DNA of 64,000 bases from an uncultured Candidatus Saccharibacteria bacterium (GTDB lineage Bacteria; Patescibacteriota; Minisyncoccia; Phycocordibacterales; UBA5272). Under the pieces are notes generated by a model. The model had not been told where the DNA came from and ran no database searches. It worked only from the letters and a program-made list of their open reading frames with translations. The stretch's first letter is position 1. Each line of letters begins with the position of its first letter. Below are positions 5,669-56,679 of the stretch, piece by piece. Made by a program: the position numbers and the translations under genes. Where the stretch lies: NCBI GenBank assembly GCA_964491805.1, contig CAZBGU010000001.1, positions 91,023 through 155,022 of the forward strand, given 5' to 3'.

Positions 5669-6006
5669 ATTATATTAATGACAGAACCAAAAACCCTGCA
5701 TAGTCTATGCAGAACTAAAAAAGGCGACATTGTGAGAGATTTATTTGTCTATAAAAATGCCTTAGCAAAAGACCTTTTATGCGATATAATAGATCAATTA
5801 ATACAAGAGTATTAAGAAGAAAAATTTGCAGTAGCCTAACCCTTTAGTTCCTAGACCTAGAGGTATGGTGAAAAAACCAGTCGAGGATAAACAACCCATC
5901 ATGTGGGATTTACCTTGACTGGTCGTATCTGGAAACGGATATGGATGGCGCAAGCTGTCACTCACGTGGTGGGCTTTTTGTGTCTTAAAAAACCAGTCAA
6001 AAAAAT

Positions 6007-8607: not shown

Positions 8608-8891
8608 AAGCTACAATGAAAAAATTAGTTGTTAATTTTGTCATTTGTAAACTTGTTTATCTTAATCTAATACTGAATCCTATAACCTCCACTTCTTTAG
8701 CATAGCAGTATCAAGTATAAAATGTCAAAGTACAACATAAAAGTAAAGTGTAAAGAGGTTCTTAATTAGATACTAAAGTACTGTCACTTTTGTCACTTTT
8801 TATAGCCACTCGAGGAGCGTCGTTTTAGAAAAATTAAAATGTTAAAAATAACCTTACAGGTCTTATCATCAAAAGGTTCTAAATCGAGGAT

Positions 8892-8944
8892 GCCCGCATA
8901 TGTAAAATACCAGACTTCAAGTCTGGTATTTTACATATGCGGGC
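8892..8944. repeat. perfect 26-bp-arm palindrome (hairpin with 1-nt centre)
   Basis: GCCCGCATATGTAAAATACCAGACTT c AAGTCTGGTATTTTACATATGCGGGC read directly from the sequence. Confidence 0.9.
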
Positions 8945-9061
8945 CCACAGCACATGACCTGCGTCGTGTGTGTGGGGAATCGAATGGGGGCCGAGGAGTC
9001 TCCTGTTTCGAGCGAAGCGAGAAACGAGACGAGGTGGCCGATTCCTCGTGGGCCCGCCACA

Positions 9062-9097
9062 TACAAAATCCGCAAGCAAGTGCTTGCGGATTTTGTA
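9062..9097. repeat. 17-bp-arm palindrome
   Basis: TACAAAATCCGCAAGCA ag TGCTTGCGGATTTTGTA. Lies in a GC-rich segment, and the flanking GCGGGCCCAC (8939-8948) and GTGGGCCCGC (9049-9058) are complementary. Confidence 0.85.
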
Positions 9098-45707: not shown

Positions 45708-45774
45708 CCGCAGTGTTGAAAATGGCAATAATGAAAGTATATATATTTGCTGTATAAAATTAGAATGTGAAAAG

Positions 45775-45795
45775 GCGCGCTCGCGCGCGCCTTAC
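45775..45795 (-). terminator. GC hairpin terminator for the minus-strand GC-rich gene
   Basis: GGCGCGC tcgc GCGCGCC. On the minus strand it is followed by TTTT. Confidence 0.5.
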
Positions 45796-45813
45796 CCTTT
45801 CGGGGTTTCGGGC

Positions 45814-46230
45814 TTACTGCCACGTCTGGTCAAACAGCACCTTGGTCGGTTGCCCGGGGTCGATCTTTTTCTTCCGGGCTTTGATCCCTTGATCGATGTA
45901 GTCGACGAACGATTTCGCATGATCGCTGTTGCATGGGGAGAATTCCCTGCCCCCAGAGCTCAAATAATGGGTCTGGGTACGCGGATCGTATGTAACGTCC
46001 ACCTTGCCCACGATCGGAACTTCCGTGACCCGTGAAAGCGACACTCGGCCGATCTTGCCGACACGGATCACCAGTCGGCTGCTGGTATTTGCCAGCCAGT
46101 TGAGGAACTTGCCGGCATCTTGCTCTGTGAAGGGTGGCTCTTGCTCTGGGGTCCTTGTTGTACGTTCTGCAACGATTGCCATGGTCACTCTTTCTATCTG
46201 TGTGTGGTCTTGGTTTGGTATCGCCTGCAA
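45814..46230 (-). CDS. hypothetical protein encoded in an anomalously GC-rich patch
   Basis: 138 aa. Local GC clearly above the flanks. Long ORFs also exist on the + strand, so coding strand is tentative. Confidence 0.35.
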   Translation of the reverse strand: MQAIPNQDHTQIERVTMAIVAERTTRTPEQEPPFTEQDAGKFLNWLANTSSRLVIRVGKIGRVSLSRVTEVPIVGKVDVTYDPRTQTHYLSSGGREFSPCNSDHAKSFVDYIDQGIKARKKKIDPGQPTKVLFDQTWQ

Positions 46231-46366
46231 AGCTGCAGGCAGTTCTTTGTCATGAGAGCTTGATAGAATATCAAGATCATAACAGGGTAATACTACAACC
46301 GATTATTATTATTGTAAAGATGTAGTTAGGTATATACTGTGTACATAGAAATAGTAACAAAACGAT

Positions 46367-48548: not shown

Positions 48549-49550
48549 GTGACGTCTACGTTATCAAGCTCAATTCTTGAACGTGGCATCGCTCGTTTTG
48601 TGCTTGTATTTTTCTATACGCTACTTGCTACTTTCTACACGCTGGCATTCTGTGGTAGAATACTCTTCATTATGCAAGAACAGCACGTAACCAACAATGA
48701 ATTACCGGGGATAGTAACGGCAACAGCTCATGAATCTGTACAGTCTGAGTCTAGTCTTCTTCATGTTCATGAAGAGATACCAACAATTGCGGCCCCAACC
48801 ATCGGTAGTGTTGGTCCTTTTACGATTGCCACATCATCAGTCACCATTCTCTTCATTACACTTCTTGTTGTTGCACTGTGTGTTGCGGTATCACGTGCAA
48901 AGCTTATCCCGGGAAAGTTCCAGAGTCTCATGGAAGTATTATATGAAATGATCTCTGGTTTTATTACGTCAATTGTTGGCACAAAAGAAAAAGCAGAAGT
49001 AATCATTCCATACGTTGGAGCGCTTATGGTGTATCTTCTCGTCGCGAATTTGCTTCCGATGATGCCTGGCATTTCTGGAGTCTCAGTACTTATTGATGGC
49101 GAGCATGTACCACTTTTCCGTGGAGCTACAACTGATTTTAATACAACGTTTGGTCTCGCACTTGCAGTCGTGGTTACAATGCAAATTGTTGGTATGAGGG
49201 AACAGGGAGTGTTCGGATATCTGTCGCATTTCATTCAGATTAAGCAAGTTGTTAAAGGGTTTAGTAAAGGCCTTGGTGAAGGGTCTGTCGCCGTTATCGG
49301 ATTTTTGGTTGGTCTTATCGAGATTATTTCAGAGCTTGCTAAGATGCTCTCACTCTCTCTTCGTCTCTTTGGTAATCTCTTTGCACACGAAGTGCTTACT
49401 GTGATTTTGCTTGGGGCTTTTGCTTTTGGAGTACCTGCCATTTGGATGGGGATGGGGGTTCTTGTGGGCGTTGTTCAGTCTATTGTATTTGTCGCATTGG
49501 TGACAGTGTACTATTCGCTCGTGCTTAAGAAAGAGGGTGGCCATCACTAG
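48549..49550 (+). CDS. atpB: F0F1 ATP synthase subunit a
   Basis: LSLSLRLFGNLFAHEVL with the essential Arg. ORF is long at 333 aa; an alternative start is at 48672. Confidence 0.85.
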   Translation: MTSTLSSSILERGIARFVLVFFYTLLATFYTLAFCGRILFIMQEQHVTNNELPGIVTATAHESVQSESSLLHVHEEIPTIAAPTIGSVGPFTIATSSVTILFITLLVVALCVAVSRAKLIPGKFQSLMEVLYEMISGFITSIVGTKEKAEVIIPYVGALMVYLLVANLLPMMPGISGVSVLIDGEHVPLFRGATTDFNTTFGLALAVVVTMQIVGMREQGVFGYLSHFIQIKQVVKGFSKGLGEGSVAVIGFLVGLIEIISELAKMLSLSLRLFGNLFAHEVLTVILLGAFAFGVPAIWMGMGVLVGVVQSIVFVALVTVYYSLVLKKEGGHH

Positions 49551-49634
49551 CGTTTCTACAAGCACTTCGTCGGAGTGCTTTACTTTTTATACTATTTATT
49601 GTATTGTGTAGATCTCTAATCATTTGGAGCCACC

Positions 49635-49964
49635 ATGAAAAAAGGTGTACAGGAGAGAGAGCGGCAGGTGCTTCTTGCATCGGCCATAAACTTCTTTGTT
49701 GTTCGCTCAGGGCGCACCAAGCAGTTTCTCGCCAACAGTGCAGGCATTTGTCCGTGTAAGTTCTCGATGATCACGAATGCGCGGCGTGATCCATCTGAGG
49801 ATGAGCTCTGCGCGATTGCACGTGCGTTTGGAGTCAGCGTGAGCGAGATTGAATCGAAGGCCCAAGACCTATCGAATGACGTCGGATTCGCCGGGGCTGT
49901 TCGGGGGTATATCGCCAAGTGCAATGAGGGCAAGGTGTCTCTATCTCGCATTGGTAGGCGATAG
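49635..49964 (+). CDS. XRE-family helix-turn-helix regulator (GC-rich, likely acquired)
   Basis: 109 aa. HTH FLANSAGICPCKFSMI...LCAIARAFGVSVSEI. GC well above the genome background. Confidence 0.45.
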   Translation: MKKGVQERERQVLLASAINFFVVRSGRTKQFLANSAGICPCKFSMITNARRDPSEDELCAIARAFGVSVSEIESKAQDLSNDVGFAGAVRGYIAKCNEGKVSLSRIGRR

Positions 49965-50054
49965 CCTCGGACCAAAGACCTTTCCTTGCAAATGGCATGG
50001 ATACGTGTTACTATTTCTAGTGTTCACGTGGAGGTCAGCTCGAGCGAGCGATTC

Positions 50055-50086
50055 CGGCCCGGCTGCAGAGCCGGGCCGTTTTTTTT
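50055..50086 (+). terminator. strong rho-independent terminator
   Basis: CGGCCCGGCT gcag AGCCGGGCCG, a 10-bp stem followed by TTTTTTTT. Confidence 0.8.
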
Positions 50087-50283
50087 ATACACATACCAGC
50101 GTGCTTTATGTCTTCACACAGTTTTATTCTGTGGATGTTTTGTTTTATAAAGTTTTATAAATAATAAGGTTTTATAAATAAGAATAATTAGTCTTTAATA
50201 ACTTCTTCCTTTTCATATAAGGCTTTTTTGTTATTGTACATCTGCAAAATGGGGTAAAGGGAAAATGTGGGGGTGGGGGGGGC

Positions 50284-50311
50284 TTGACAAACTCTGTGAA
50301 TTTGCTATACT
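50284..50311 (+). promoter_or_regulatory. near-consensus sigma70-type promoter with extended -10
   Basis: TTGACA - 16 nt - TGcTATACT. Preceded by the G-run GGGGGTGGGGGGGG. Confidence 0.55.
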
Positions 50312-50318
50312 GGTACTT

Positions 50319-50689
50319 GTCAGTTCGAGACCGAAAGATCAGAGCAGACTGCAGGCAATGGTTGAGCGCCTGCAAAACGAAAAAGCTCACCCCTACCTCC
50401 TAACCTGATCGCATGTAATCGCCTAGGTTTCACAGCCCTAGCCAGCAATGCCAGGGGTGGCAAAGCTGAGTGATTATAACTCAAATTAGAGTCATCAAAA
50501 CCTTGGGGTCGGCGACGGGCACTCGAGAAGCCTGTTTACCGAGATACTGTGAGTGTCGAAAATCGCGGCAAACCTGACCGCGTCGAGCTGAAGGCTCGCA
50601 AAAGTCGTGGCAACCTGGCCACGCCGAGCTGAAAGCTCGCCCAACGGCCTGGTTGGGTGCTCATGCATCCCCCCAGGCCTCTCTTTTTG
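50319..50689 (+). ncRNA. candidate ~370-nt structured non-coding RNA of unknown family
   Basis: Bounded by the promoter and an intrinsic terminator (GGCCTGG...CCAGGCC + TCTCTTTTT). GC-rich with no convincing ORF. Two tandem modules, each a pair of hairpins, show compensatory changes (CGCGG/CCGCG vs CGTGG/CCACG; CGAGC-TGAAG-GCTCG vs CGAGC-TGAAA-GCTCG). Confidence 0.45.
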
Positions 50690-50972
50690 GATTTATAGAA
50701 TAGTTTCTGATTGCTTCACTTTATGGGTGAGCTTTTTTTAATTTTATACTTAATCGTGCGTGGATCTGGTCATTACTTTTGTTTGTGTTGATTATAATTT
50801 TACTCCTGCTGTCATGTTCTTCCTCTAGATCGCTTTTACTATTTCTGCTATACTCTACCCATAAGCCTTTCTTGAGGCGAATTTTTATTGAAATGATGAT
50901 AGGCAGAGATTCTTTGCATACATATTAGCATCAATCTAGTGCCTGTTGTCCTAAATCTAACAATCTATCATT

Positions 50973-51191
50973 ATGACCCCAGAAGCAGCAATTTATATCG
51001 CAAAAGGAATGTGTATTCTAGCCATGGTTGGAACAGCCGTCGGACAAGGATATCTCGTTGGTAAGACTATGGAAGCGATTGGACGTAATCCAGACGTAGA
51101 AGGATCACTCTTCTCAAAGATGATCATTGGTGTTGCTATGACAGAAACAACAGCGATCTTCGCACTTGTTGCATTCTTCCTTCTTAAGTAG
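50973..51191 (+). CDS. atpE: F0F1 ATP synthase subunit c
   Basis: 72 aa. Two TM hairpin with the conserved carboxylate helix. Confidence 0.9.
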   Translation: MTPEAAIYIAKGMCILAMVGTAVGQGYLVGKTMEAIGRNPDVEGSLFSKMIIGVAMTETTAIFALVAFFLLK

Positions 51192-52146: not shown

Positions 52147-52203
52147 GAGAAGACAAAGAATCACCATTAACAACCAATTACGAATTACTAATACTATCAA
52201 TCT

Positions 52204-54630: not shown

Positions 54631-55227
54631 ATGACAGACAACAGATCACAGACAAATACTATGAAAAAAATTCCTGACAATGCAAAAAAAGTTTTTGAAG
54701 GAACTATTTTTGATATTTATCAATGGGAACAAATACTTAAGAATGGAACTTCTTCACTGTTTGAGGCGATGAGACGCATTGGGAGCACGAGAGTTCTTCC
54801 TGTATATCAGAATAAACTTGTTTTAATTGAGGAGATAGGATTGGATGGATCTAGAGAAATTTTATCTCCAGGTGGGAGACTTGAGCGTAATGAATTACCA
54901 CTTGAAGCCGCTAAAAGAGAGTTGTTCGAAGAGACAGGTTTTGAAACGTCAGACTGGGAACATTTATTTGATAAAGATCTCTGCGATTCAAATAAAATGG
55001 AATGGGTCACTAGTTACTTTATTGCACGAAACTGTGTTGTGTCTCCAGATGAAAAATCAGACACGGGTGAGAATATCACAGTCAAATTAGTAGAGTTTGA
55101 GGAAGTGTTTAATGCTCTGGATACTATATTCACCACAGATCCTGAATTACAAAAACTTTTCTTAGAAGCAAAACTAGATAAAGACAAAAAAACGAAATTA
55201 AAAGACTTACTCGGAATCACCACGTAA
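54631..55227 (+). CDS. Nudix hydrolase inserted in the atp operon
   Basis: 198 aa. Nudix box GGRLERNELPLEAAKRELFEETGF. Confidence 0.7.
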   Translation: MTDNRSQTNTMKKIPDNAKKVFEGTIFDIYQWEQILKNGTSSLFEAMRRIGSTRVLPVYQNKLVLIEEIGLDGSREILSPGGRLERNELPLEAAKRELFEETGFETSDWEHLFDKDLCDSNKMEWVTSYFIARNCVVSPDEKSDTGENITVKLVEFEEVFNALDTIFTTDPELQKLFLEAKLDKDKKTKLKDLLGITT

Positions 55228-55275
55228 CCACCGAGCAGTAAGTATTACAAGAATTTACTAACATCTATTATCTAA

Positions 55276-56679
<1,404 letters not shown>

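Follow-up and report, generated by a model that had tools for sequence, protein, structure and literature searches.

We analysed the region between atpB and atpE, the genes for subunits a and c of the Fo part of ATP synthase, in a 64-kb window (64,000 nt, the whole stretch of DNA examined here) from the genome of an uncultured bacterium deposited as Candidatus Saccharibacteria. An earlier note on this DNA had described the gap between the two genes as a horizontally acquired cassette that split an operon and left atpE through atpC dependent on new promoters. Comparison with related genomes pointed to a different explanation, which we consider probable as a whole: the atpB-atpE spacer would mark an ancestral boundary between transcription units and act as a landing site for accessory DNA, here a foreign cassette of two units. 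In this Paceibacterota/Nomurabacteria-like lineage of the candidate phyla radiation (CPR), atpB would be read from its own near-leaderless promoter, and atpE and the later genes from a conserved promoter and leader module located close to atpE. The stretch from the atpB stop codon up to this module would tolerate insertions, making the site a hot spot whose accessory cargo differs by species. In the window, the cargo would comprise (i) a gene for an orphan XRE-like helix-turn-helix (HTH) regulator, equipped with a Shine-Dalgarno (SD) sequence and a strong terminator, and (ii) a GC-rich structured RNA of ~373 nt, expressed from a strong promoter shared with close relatives and closed by two terminators. 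With a terminator closing each cargo unit and the ancestral module before atpE preserved, the cassette should not alter expression of the ATP synthase genes. Our best guess is that the probable targets of regulation by the HTH protein are its own gene, the RNA promoter or both, possibly reached via three GTTTTATAAA palindromes, and that the RNA probably acts in trans and has an internal domain that evolves fast or is exchanged by recombination. Coordinates of all features are given in Table 1.

Spacing of atpB and atpE in related genomes

Pfam searches confirmed that atpB ends at 49550 and atpE starts at 50973, which leaves a gap of 1,422 nt. The nearest relatives of the source genome are uncultured CPR bacteria, labelled as Paceibacterota, Nomurabacteria or "Saccharibacteria" metagenome-assembled genomes. 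We collected 38 loci from different species by AtpB protein and measured the atpB-atpE distance by tblastn (loci are numbered with the prefix L); 31 of the 38 contained both genes. Five genomes encoding an identical AtpE were added, three of which spanned the entire spacer. The spacer varied from 117 to 2,303 nt in the 31 species-representative loci and was 93, 170 and 1,152 nt in the three identical-AtpE genomes, the first of these being the shortest distance in the clade. This synteny comparison contradicts the idea of an operon split by insertion: atpB and atpE were already apart in the lineage, a finding that the earlier note had named as refuting its reading, with spacers of 93 to more than 2,300 nt, and a single contiguous unit with adjacent atpB and atpE was apparently present in none of 36 relatives.

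A conserved predicted promoter and leader module upstream of atpE

An alignment of the 170 nt upstream of atpE from 31 relatives revealed a module with an invariant layout, namely T-TG-n-TATA(C/A)T, 9–12 nt, a GC hairpin of 3–5 bp with a GCC/GGC core, and (G/C)(A/G)AUUUUUAUUGA. The hairpin was detected in 31/31 relatives, and its fourth stem pair covaried (U-A vs C-G). Each locus contained one copy of the module, 58–131 nt before the ATG and solely before atpE, and it was kept in the shortest, insert-free spacers, those of L138 (93 nt) and L032 (117 nt). In the window, the module was intact at 50846–50892, downstream of the entire insert, and 50835–50900 was the only stretch of the gap conserved in relatives. 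Six of the eight TGnTATAMT copies in the window were located just upstream of open reading frame (ORF) starts, suggesting that this is a genuine promoter motif in this genome.

A promoter scan also identified a TG-TAGAAT -10 box at 48634–48661, with the likely start codon of atpB (ATG 48672) 10 nt downstream, and atpB appears to be read from this near-leaderless promoter of its own. Together with the conserved atpE module, this -10 box suggests that atpB and atpE are separate transcription units across the clade, and the promoter of atpE is, to judge from its distribution, ancestral. Given the fixed distance between the -10 box and the hairpin, the simplest reading is that the hairpin forms the 5' terminus of the atpE transcript. 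It may act as a leaky terminator for transcripts from upstream, a 5'-end stabiliser or an attenuator. The complete element, consisting of the -10 box, the hairpin and AUUUUUAUUGA, may be an undescribed cis-regulatory device that sets c-subunit expression, either as an attenuator or as a 5' stabiliser.

These data bear directly on the possibility that an acquired cassette split a contiguous atpB-atpE operon, so that atpE through atpC now rely on promoters derived from the insertion. The insert is indeed lineage-specific and GC-anomalous, and it brings in a very strong promoter oriented as atpE. However, the -10 box/hairpin module was found in every relative checked, including those with insert-free spacers of 93–170 nt, and persists in the window downstream of the insert; two terminators lie between the cassette promoter and atpE; and the atpB-atpE distance never fell below 93 nt in the clade. 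We regard the split of a contiguous operon as highly improbable, and the proposed dependence of atpE through atpC on new promoters was not supported. More generally, what looks like an operon split by horizontal transfer can be an older transcription boundary that attracts cargo, and synteny checks are needed before rewired regulation is inferred.

A comparable arrangement is known from chloroplasts, in which the atpI/H/F/A operon contains an internal promoter upstream of atpH, the c-subunit gene (PMC3817242). As with chloroplast atpH, the c-subunit gene would have its own promoter downstream of the a-subunit gene, and the defined, protected 5' region of atpH transcripts would have its counterpart in the atpE module. 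The atpE module differs from the chloroplast system in that a predicted extended -10 box of bacterial type is followed by a short 5' hairpin and an AU-rich tract that is conserved, with no footprint of a pentatricopeptide repeat (PPR)-type protein. A separate c-subunit promoter would permit more c- than a-subunit message.

Directly upstream of three start codons, heptad repeats poor in G and conforming to A(A/T)CTAA(C/T) were observed, at 50940–50972 (atpE), 55250–55293 (atpD) and 52180–52203 (atpA). Relatives contained 3–5 tandem AACTAAT/AACTAAC units before atpE and no SD sequence (for example, L004, 940–984). These repeats may represent an SD-independent translation signal.

Variable cargo at the atpB-atpE site

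The spacers of relatives contained diverse accessory DNA. One example involved L014, in which a HAD hydrolase, a Phd/ParE toxin-antitoxin pair and a deaminase were present. Other spacers contained adenylosuccinate lyase and a small membrane protein (L021), a membrane protein on the opposite strand (L017 and L019), two small membrane proteins (L139), orphan ORFs (L002, L005, L013 and L020) or small RNA (sRNA)-like units (L001 and L008), and the spacer of L011 retained a remnant of the L012 ORF, its 3' end alone. Thus, unrelated and variable content was found between conserved flanking genes across related genomes, as in integration hot spots. None of this cargo included the ORF or the RNA block of the window, suggesting that the site is a hot spot for accessory DNA.

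The sRNA-like units of L001 and L008 were clearly homologous to each other. The promoter at 50284–50311 in the window is homologous to one located just 3' of atpB in these two loci (29 nt, 90% identity to L001, 16-nt spacer kept), where it is predicted to drive a different transcript of ~100 nt with its own terminator. This unit had no Rfam family match and may encode a short ORF of at least 9 codons (MRRNIQPTR in L001). We considered whether the RNA of the window is a homologue of the L001/L008 unit and rejected this, because the transcribed parts were not significantly alike (p=0.013 to 0.77) and the promoter alone was common. The combination of a homologous promoter with different transcribed units suggests that a strong promoter resides after atpB in this subclade and that the cargo transcribed from it was swapped. 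The window additionally appears to have gained the HTH unit upstream of the resident promoter.

The site resembles intergenic integration hot spots and genomic islets in its conserved flanks (atpB and atpE), its species-varying content, including a toxin-antitoxin pair, and the anomalous composition of its cargo. Unlike typical hot spots, it lies inside the ATP synthase cluster and not by a tRNA gene, no signature of an integrase, an attachment site or direct repeats was found, and its cargo units are very small (0.1–2 kb).

Heptamer repeats, either tandem or inverted, were also seen at spacer edges in L016 (860–990), L015 (6000–6190) and L139 (2350–2390 and 3310–3345). They were of the types GTTAGAA/TTCTAAC, (GTAGAAA)n and (CTATTGG)n, and could be terminator arms or recombination-prone sequence.

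Composition and distribution of the cassette

The GC content of the whole gap was 0.455 vs 0.40 for the window, which belongs to a low-GC genome. The gap had been described as much higher in GC than its surroundings; this was true of two blocks, the HTH ORF (~0.54) and the RNA-like block (0.55), but the rest of the gap was not raised, and the spacers at 50087–50283 and 50691–50972 were AT-rich (0.32–0.33). Compared to 56 host ORFs, the HTH ORF was unusual in both GC (0.536, z=3.5) and GC at third codon positions (GC3, 0.58, z=4.6), and the block at 50318–50690 was among the top 0.2% of sliding windows. The HTH gene also has an SD sequence in a largely SD-less genome: an SD-like motif was found at 7 of the 49 ORF starts checked in the window, the HTH gene being among the seven. 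By these features the cassette is compositionally foreign.

The insert was recovered from four independent assemblies at 100% identity, apart from a single 1-nt indel in one of them, and is thus not an assembly artefact. Two further assemblies (L039 and L040) contained variant alleles. Neither the HTH gene nor the RNA block was found in any of 36 related genomes by tblastn, blastn, tblastx or a covariance model. In tblastx comparisons of the gap with relatives, only the atpE leader region matched, with no protein-level remnant of cargo, and a self-search of the window revealed no second copy of the cassette. A covariance model of the RNA core, searched against 495 kb of related DNA, returned only the window and L039. 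The cassette thus appears confined to this species. Of the claim of an acquired cassette, the lineage-specific and foreign character of the DNA was upheld, but the splitting of a contiguous operon was not supported.

Searches of wider collections were also negative. With the whole gap as query (blastn in distant mode), nothing matched in phage and plasmid collections. In viral contigs, CGAGCTGAARGCTCGC gave 59 matches, none of which extended past ~39 nt; those whose context was read were coding sequence (Asp-Glu-Leu-Lys-Ala-Arg), and one was an unrelated tandem repeat of 68–70 nt. For GGTGGCAAAGCTGAGT, nine matches were found in viral contigs, with similarity limited to the seed, and the 25 matches of the island motif GCAATGCCAN{0,4}GGTGGCAAAGC in metagenome contigs were all due to chance, with dissimilar flanks.

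An orphan HTH gene and candidate operators

The 109-aa ORF that forms the first cargo unit is a real gene under purifying selection. Compared with the L039/L040 allele, it had 8 synonymous and 3 non-synonymous differences, corresponding to a ratio of non-synonymous to synonymous polymorphism (pN/pS) of 0.12. Its product looks like a divergent HTH protein of the XRE/Cro-cI type. The best family matches were phage repressor families in PHROG (E ~1e-3), Pfam HTH_3 and HTH_31 were matched at E ~5e-4, ClgR (3f51) at E=0.02, and PADLOC gave weak, generic matches to HTH and control-protein models. The gene had been described as XRE-type; its reality and XRE-like nature were supported, but its Pfam scores fell below the cut-offs.

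The protein represented a single cluster among 5.8 billion proteins. In an exhaustive phmmer search of 1.84 billion cluster representatives, it matched its own cluster, which included a 97%-identical allele, and then only remote proteins with 21–45% identity over short stretches, aligned to HTH residues ~10–78. Five of the remote matches were scanned and all were bona fide HTH_3 proteins (HTH_3 at 1e-13 to 1e-55). This distribution of matches identifies the HTH protein as an orphan. Similar to XRE/Cro-cI regulators (HTH_3/HTH_31), it has one HTH domain of ~60 residues near the N-terminus. Unlike them, it has sub-threshold scores, no partner toxin and no divergent operator-promoter arrangement. 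The adjacent, co-transcribed toxin gene expected of a type II toxin-antitoxin system with an XRE antitoxin was missing, since the HTH gene shares its predicted transcription unit with no second ORF.

Upstream of the gene, a TATACT hexamer at 49587–49592 could serve as its -10 box. Downstream, 90 nt after the end of the gene, the intrinsic terminator at 50055–50086 was as strong as had been noted and was the same in the variant alleles, save for one extra T in the T-run of L039. The AT-rich spacer that follows contained three copies of GTTTTATAAA, vs 0.39 expected in the 64-kb window; no copy occurred elsewhere in the window, and none of 100 shuffles reached three. The three sites are candidate operators, and protein binding to them is inferred.

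A structured RNA candidate with a hypervariable core

The second unit, which had been proposed as a structured RNA bounded by a promoter and a terminator, was corroborated in each of these respects: a near-consensus promoter at 50284–50311, strong predicted folding and terminators were all found. Only two alleles of this RNA, from one species, were available for comparison, the window and L039, the latter being the sole variant contig that spanned the RNA unit. Their comparison showed a hypervariable core within otherwise near-identical DNA. Outside the core, identity was 97–100% in the HTH gene, spacers and promoter as well as over the final ~80 nt of the block. The alleles differed by indels of 2, 6, 1, 2, 12, 11 and 41 nt, mostly not multiples of three, the largest of which corresponds to a two-hairpin module that is duplicated in the window and present as a single copy in L039. 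No ORF was common to both alleles, which indicates that the block is non-coding, and a 57-aa minus-strand ORF within it matched only itself among 5.8 billion proteins.

Both alleles fold better than shuffled sequence, with minimum free energy (MFE) z=-3.3 for the window and -4.15 for L039. An RNAalifold consensus of the two alleles contained 76 pairs, with 3 compensatory changes, 7 one-sided changes that kept pairing and no broken pair. Thus, the block combines features generally expected of structured RNAs, including its own predicted promoter and intrinsic terminator, no conserved ORF and better-than-shuffled folding. A long-range closing stem between 50380–50395 and 50722–50737 was considered and rejected, because it was poorly kept in L039 and its 3' arm makes a local terminator hairpin.

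The RNA could not be assigned to a known family. Rfam (Rfam 15) at gathering thresholds over the whole window gave no match in the RNA block; nor did Rfam at E<=10 over 49500–51000, which returned only generic terminator look-alikes at 50055–50086. ARAGORN detected no tRNA or tmRNA in the block. The tmRNA, RNase P, signal recognition particle (SRP) RNA and 6S RNA were each rejected as candidates, since their signature motifs were missing by eye and no Rfam match was obtained.

An alternative view is that 50318–50690 gives no functional RNA and consists of foreign DNA in decay, for example a pseudogene or the remnant of a mobile element, that happens to lie behind a resident promoter. The block had no homologue in any collection searched, its two alleles differ by many indels, cargo remnants do occur at the site (the 3' end of the L012 ORF in L011), and covariation statistics were not significant. 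However, the divergence is concentrated in the block, with the promoter, the 3' hairpins and the flanks 97–100% identical, a pattern unlike uniform decay. In addition, both alleles fold far better than shuffled sequence, all 13 changed positions in consensus pairs keep pairing (a partly circular argument, as RNAalifold was applied to the same two sequences), and no tblastx similarity to the cargo of relatives was found. We consider decay of this kind unlikely.

Another alternative is that the RNA is a cis-acting leader, either a riboswitch or an attenuator, that controls read-through from the promoter at 50284 into atpE and provides a second regulated input. The RNA is oriented as atpE and located directly upstream of it, at the same position in L001 and L008 a homologous promoter precedes a smaller structured unit that has a terminator, and the terminators could be conditional. 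Against this model, the RNA is followed by two terminators in a row and then by a conserved promoter that belongs to atpE, and the element is missing from relatives and thus is no general atp regulator. Its core is hypervariable between strains, unlike a ligand-binding aptamer, and no Rfam riboswitch matched. With a promoter intervening and no conservation together with atpE, the element differs from riboswitches and from atpE leaders, and we find such a cis-acting role very unlikely.

Long GC-rich intergenic regions (GC-IGRs) of AT-rich bacterial genomes are enriched for structured RNAs (PMC6429828, PMC8723152), and the GC-IGR approach has yielded orphan structured non-coding RNA (ncRNA) candidates in AT-rich bacteria (PMC6429828, PMC8723152, PMC11109978). 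The candidate RNA of the window resembles them in its long intergenic location, GC content well above that of the genome, strong predicted folding, own predicted promoter and terminator and lack of coding potential. Unlike them, it is represented by two alleles of one species, with no family, no significant covariation and a hypervariable core. A bolder proposal is that 50318–50690 is the first member of a new RNA class of ~370 nt with a conserved scaffold (the 5' hairpins, the island at 50437–50472 and the hairpin modules at the 3' end) and an internal domain that diversifies rapidly. Together with the XRE-like regulator, it would provide a CPR bacterium of reduced genome with a minimal specificity module based on RNA. 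If true, its role could be, for example, in defence, immunity or element competition; we regard this proposal as doubtful.

A related explanation, which is compatible with an accessory cassette at an old transcription boundary and refines it, is that an XRE repressor and a variable RNA that confers specificity make up a minimal module of a mobile element or of defence/immunity, such as a prophage or satellite remnant. It is consistent with the phage repressor PHROGs as the best HTH family matches and the weak PADLOC matches to HTH and control-protein models, with the hypervariable RNA core between near-identical flanks, with the foreign composition, and with the toxin-antitoxin pair at the same site in L014. 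However, no integrase, reverse transcriptase, Cas, toxin or nuclease gene was found nearby, phage, plasmid and viral contig collections gave no match, and all HTH matches were weak and generic. We judge it rather improbable. With regard to known diversifying systems, the reverse transcriptase or Cas ORFs expected of diversity-generating retroelements, retrons or CRISPR were missing nearby, and the allele differences include indels of 1–41 nt and not single-base substitutions alone, the sole repeat being the 41-nt tandem duplication.

Several observations weigh against the explanation that we prefer, that of a two-unit cassette at an ancestral boundary. With regard to insertion, no integrase, recombinase, target-site duplication or tRNA/tmRNA target was detected in or near the gap; the best direct repeat flanking the gap was 14/18 nt (D7), and the nearest tRNA was 15 kb off. 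As for regulation, the HTH protein did not reach Pfam gathering scores (HTH_3, 20.6 vs 23 bits; HTH_31, 20.6 vs 27), its single-sequence AlphaFold2 model was all-helical with low confidence (predicted local distance difference test, pLDDT, 51), and the GTTTTATAAA sites lie 105–140 nt before the -35 box, a long distance for simple repression. The leader hairpin of atpE is weak, with predicted energies of -3.6 to -6.8 kcal/mol. For the RNA, covariation was not significant, as 45 of 500 shuffles matched the observed values; this support is weak because only two alleles were available, and the consensus structure was derived from these same alleles, which makes the pairing evidence partly circular. 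Finally, the promoters, terminators and RNA ends are consensus-level predictions.

On balance, the observation stands, but most of it is ordinary: a variable intergenic site is occupied by a small accessory islet that is specific to the strain, together with an unplaced ncRNA candidate. The pair of an orphan regulator and an RNA is a candidate for experiments, and its importance is hard to judge from a single species with two alleles. Of greatest lasting value are the clade-wide promoter/leader module of atpE, the hot spot for insertions within the atp cluster and the hypervariability of the RNA core.

Table 1. Features of the atpB-atpE region (positions refer to the window unless a locus is named)
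Feature	Position	Strand	Description
atpB (Fo subunit a)	48672–49550	+	Pfam ATP-synt_A, 9.5e-39
Terminator-like hairpin 3' of atpB	49560–49590	+	9-bp stem, -10.3 kcal/mol, then UACUUUUUAU
Orphan 109-aa XRE-like HTH gene	49635–49964	+	GGAG Shine-Dalgarno 6 nt upstream of ATG
Strong intrinsic terminator after HTH gene, predicted	50055–50086	+	10-bp stem (9 GC pairs), 4-nt loop, T8
Three copies of GTTTTATAAA (palindromic core TTTATAAA)	50142–50178	+	Spacings of 10 and 17 nt, in AT-rich spacer
Near-consensus sigma-70-type promoter, predicted	50284–50311	+	TTGACA, 16-nt spacer, TG-n-TATACT; 11/12 matches plus TG
Candidate structured non-coding RNA, ~373 nt	50318–50690	+	GC 0.55; ends inferred from promoter and terminator
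Hypervariable RNA core	50339–50618	+	15–75% identical to L039 per 40-nt window
Conserved hairpin island inside variable core	~50437–50472	+	From comparison of window and L039
Tandem 41-nt duplication, two-hairpin module	50571–50640	+	GYGGC-AACCUG-GCCRC, then CGAGC-UGAAR-GCUCG
Main RNA terminator, predicted	50646–50690	+	-25.8 kcal/mol hairpin, then UCUCUUUUU; L039 nearly identical
Second, weaker terminator-like hairpin	50713–50745	+	GCUUCAC...GUGAGC, then U7
atpE promoter, extended -10 box TGCTATACT, predicted	50846–50854	+	TGnTATA(C/A)T in 31/31 aligned relatives, also L138 and L139
Conserved leader element	50865–50892	+	5-bp GC hairpin from 10 nt after -10 box, then GAAUUUUUAUUGAA
Rest of atpE 5' leader	50893–50972	+	No Shine-Dalgarno; G-poor CUAA-type heptad repeats at end
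atpE (Fo subunit c)	50973–51191	+	Pfam ATP-synt_C, 4e-17
sRNA-like unit after atpB	L001, 6866–7012; L008, 5396–5545		U-rich arm pairing with GAGAAAGGGG, second small hairpin, strong terminator

Organization of the ATP synthase cluster and other features of the window

The ATP synthase genes are located on one strand in the order atpB-[cassette]-atpE-atpF-atpH-atpA-atpG-[NUDIX]-atpD-atpC, as assigned by the Pfam domains ATP-synt_A, ATP-synt_C, ATP-synt_B, OSCP, ATP-synt_ab (twice), ATP-synt and ATP-synt_DE found along the cluster. The genes for a, c, b, delta, alpha, gamma, beta and epsilon subunits thus occur in the order of an F1Fo cluster, interrupted twice, by the cassette between atpB and atpE and by a NUDIX hydrolase gene (54631–55227) between atpG and atpD. 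The NUDIX gene was present at the same position in 12 of 31 related loci and missing from the others, indicating a second variable position within the cluster; the cluster thus tolerates small accessory cassettes at two positions. In more distant loci (L034–L038, AtpB ~50% identical), no atpE was detected beside atpB, and in L034 an atpD-like gene directly followed atpB, suggesting that the atp cluster is arranged differently in that group.

Many genes of the window had a TATACT-type -10 box 8–12 nt before the ATG and no SD sequence; examples of such starts include 11840, 13018, 15682, 18762(-), 18806, 30954, 41395 and 48672. This arrangement suggests that leaderless mRNAs predominate in this organism. 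With regard to CPR gene expression, the family-wide conserved promoter and leader of the c-subunit gene stands in a genome in which SD sequences are mostly missing and many genes are apparently leaderless.

A second islet of foreign composition was detected at 45772–46260. It contained an orphan ORF of 122–138 aa (45814–46182, minus strand; GC 0.55, GC3 0.67, z=6.1) with a GC-rich hairpin downstream. Searches of Pfam, PHROG and PADLOC gave no match for the ORF, and 5.8 billion proteins included no homologue of it. The islet was missing from all relatives, though the flanking ahpC and DUF541 genes were conserved. An intergenic block at 8890–9090, with a GC content high for this genome (0.44), contained hairpins, including a long perfect palindrome, ATATGTAAAATACCAGACTT/AAGTCTGGTATTTTACATAT. 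Finally, a full-length match to the LOOT RNA (RF03000; 87.5 bits vs a gathering threshold of 46.4) was found at 5833–5959 on the plus strand, between minus-strand and plus-strand genes.

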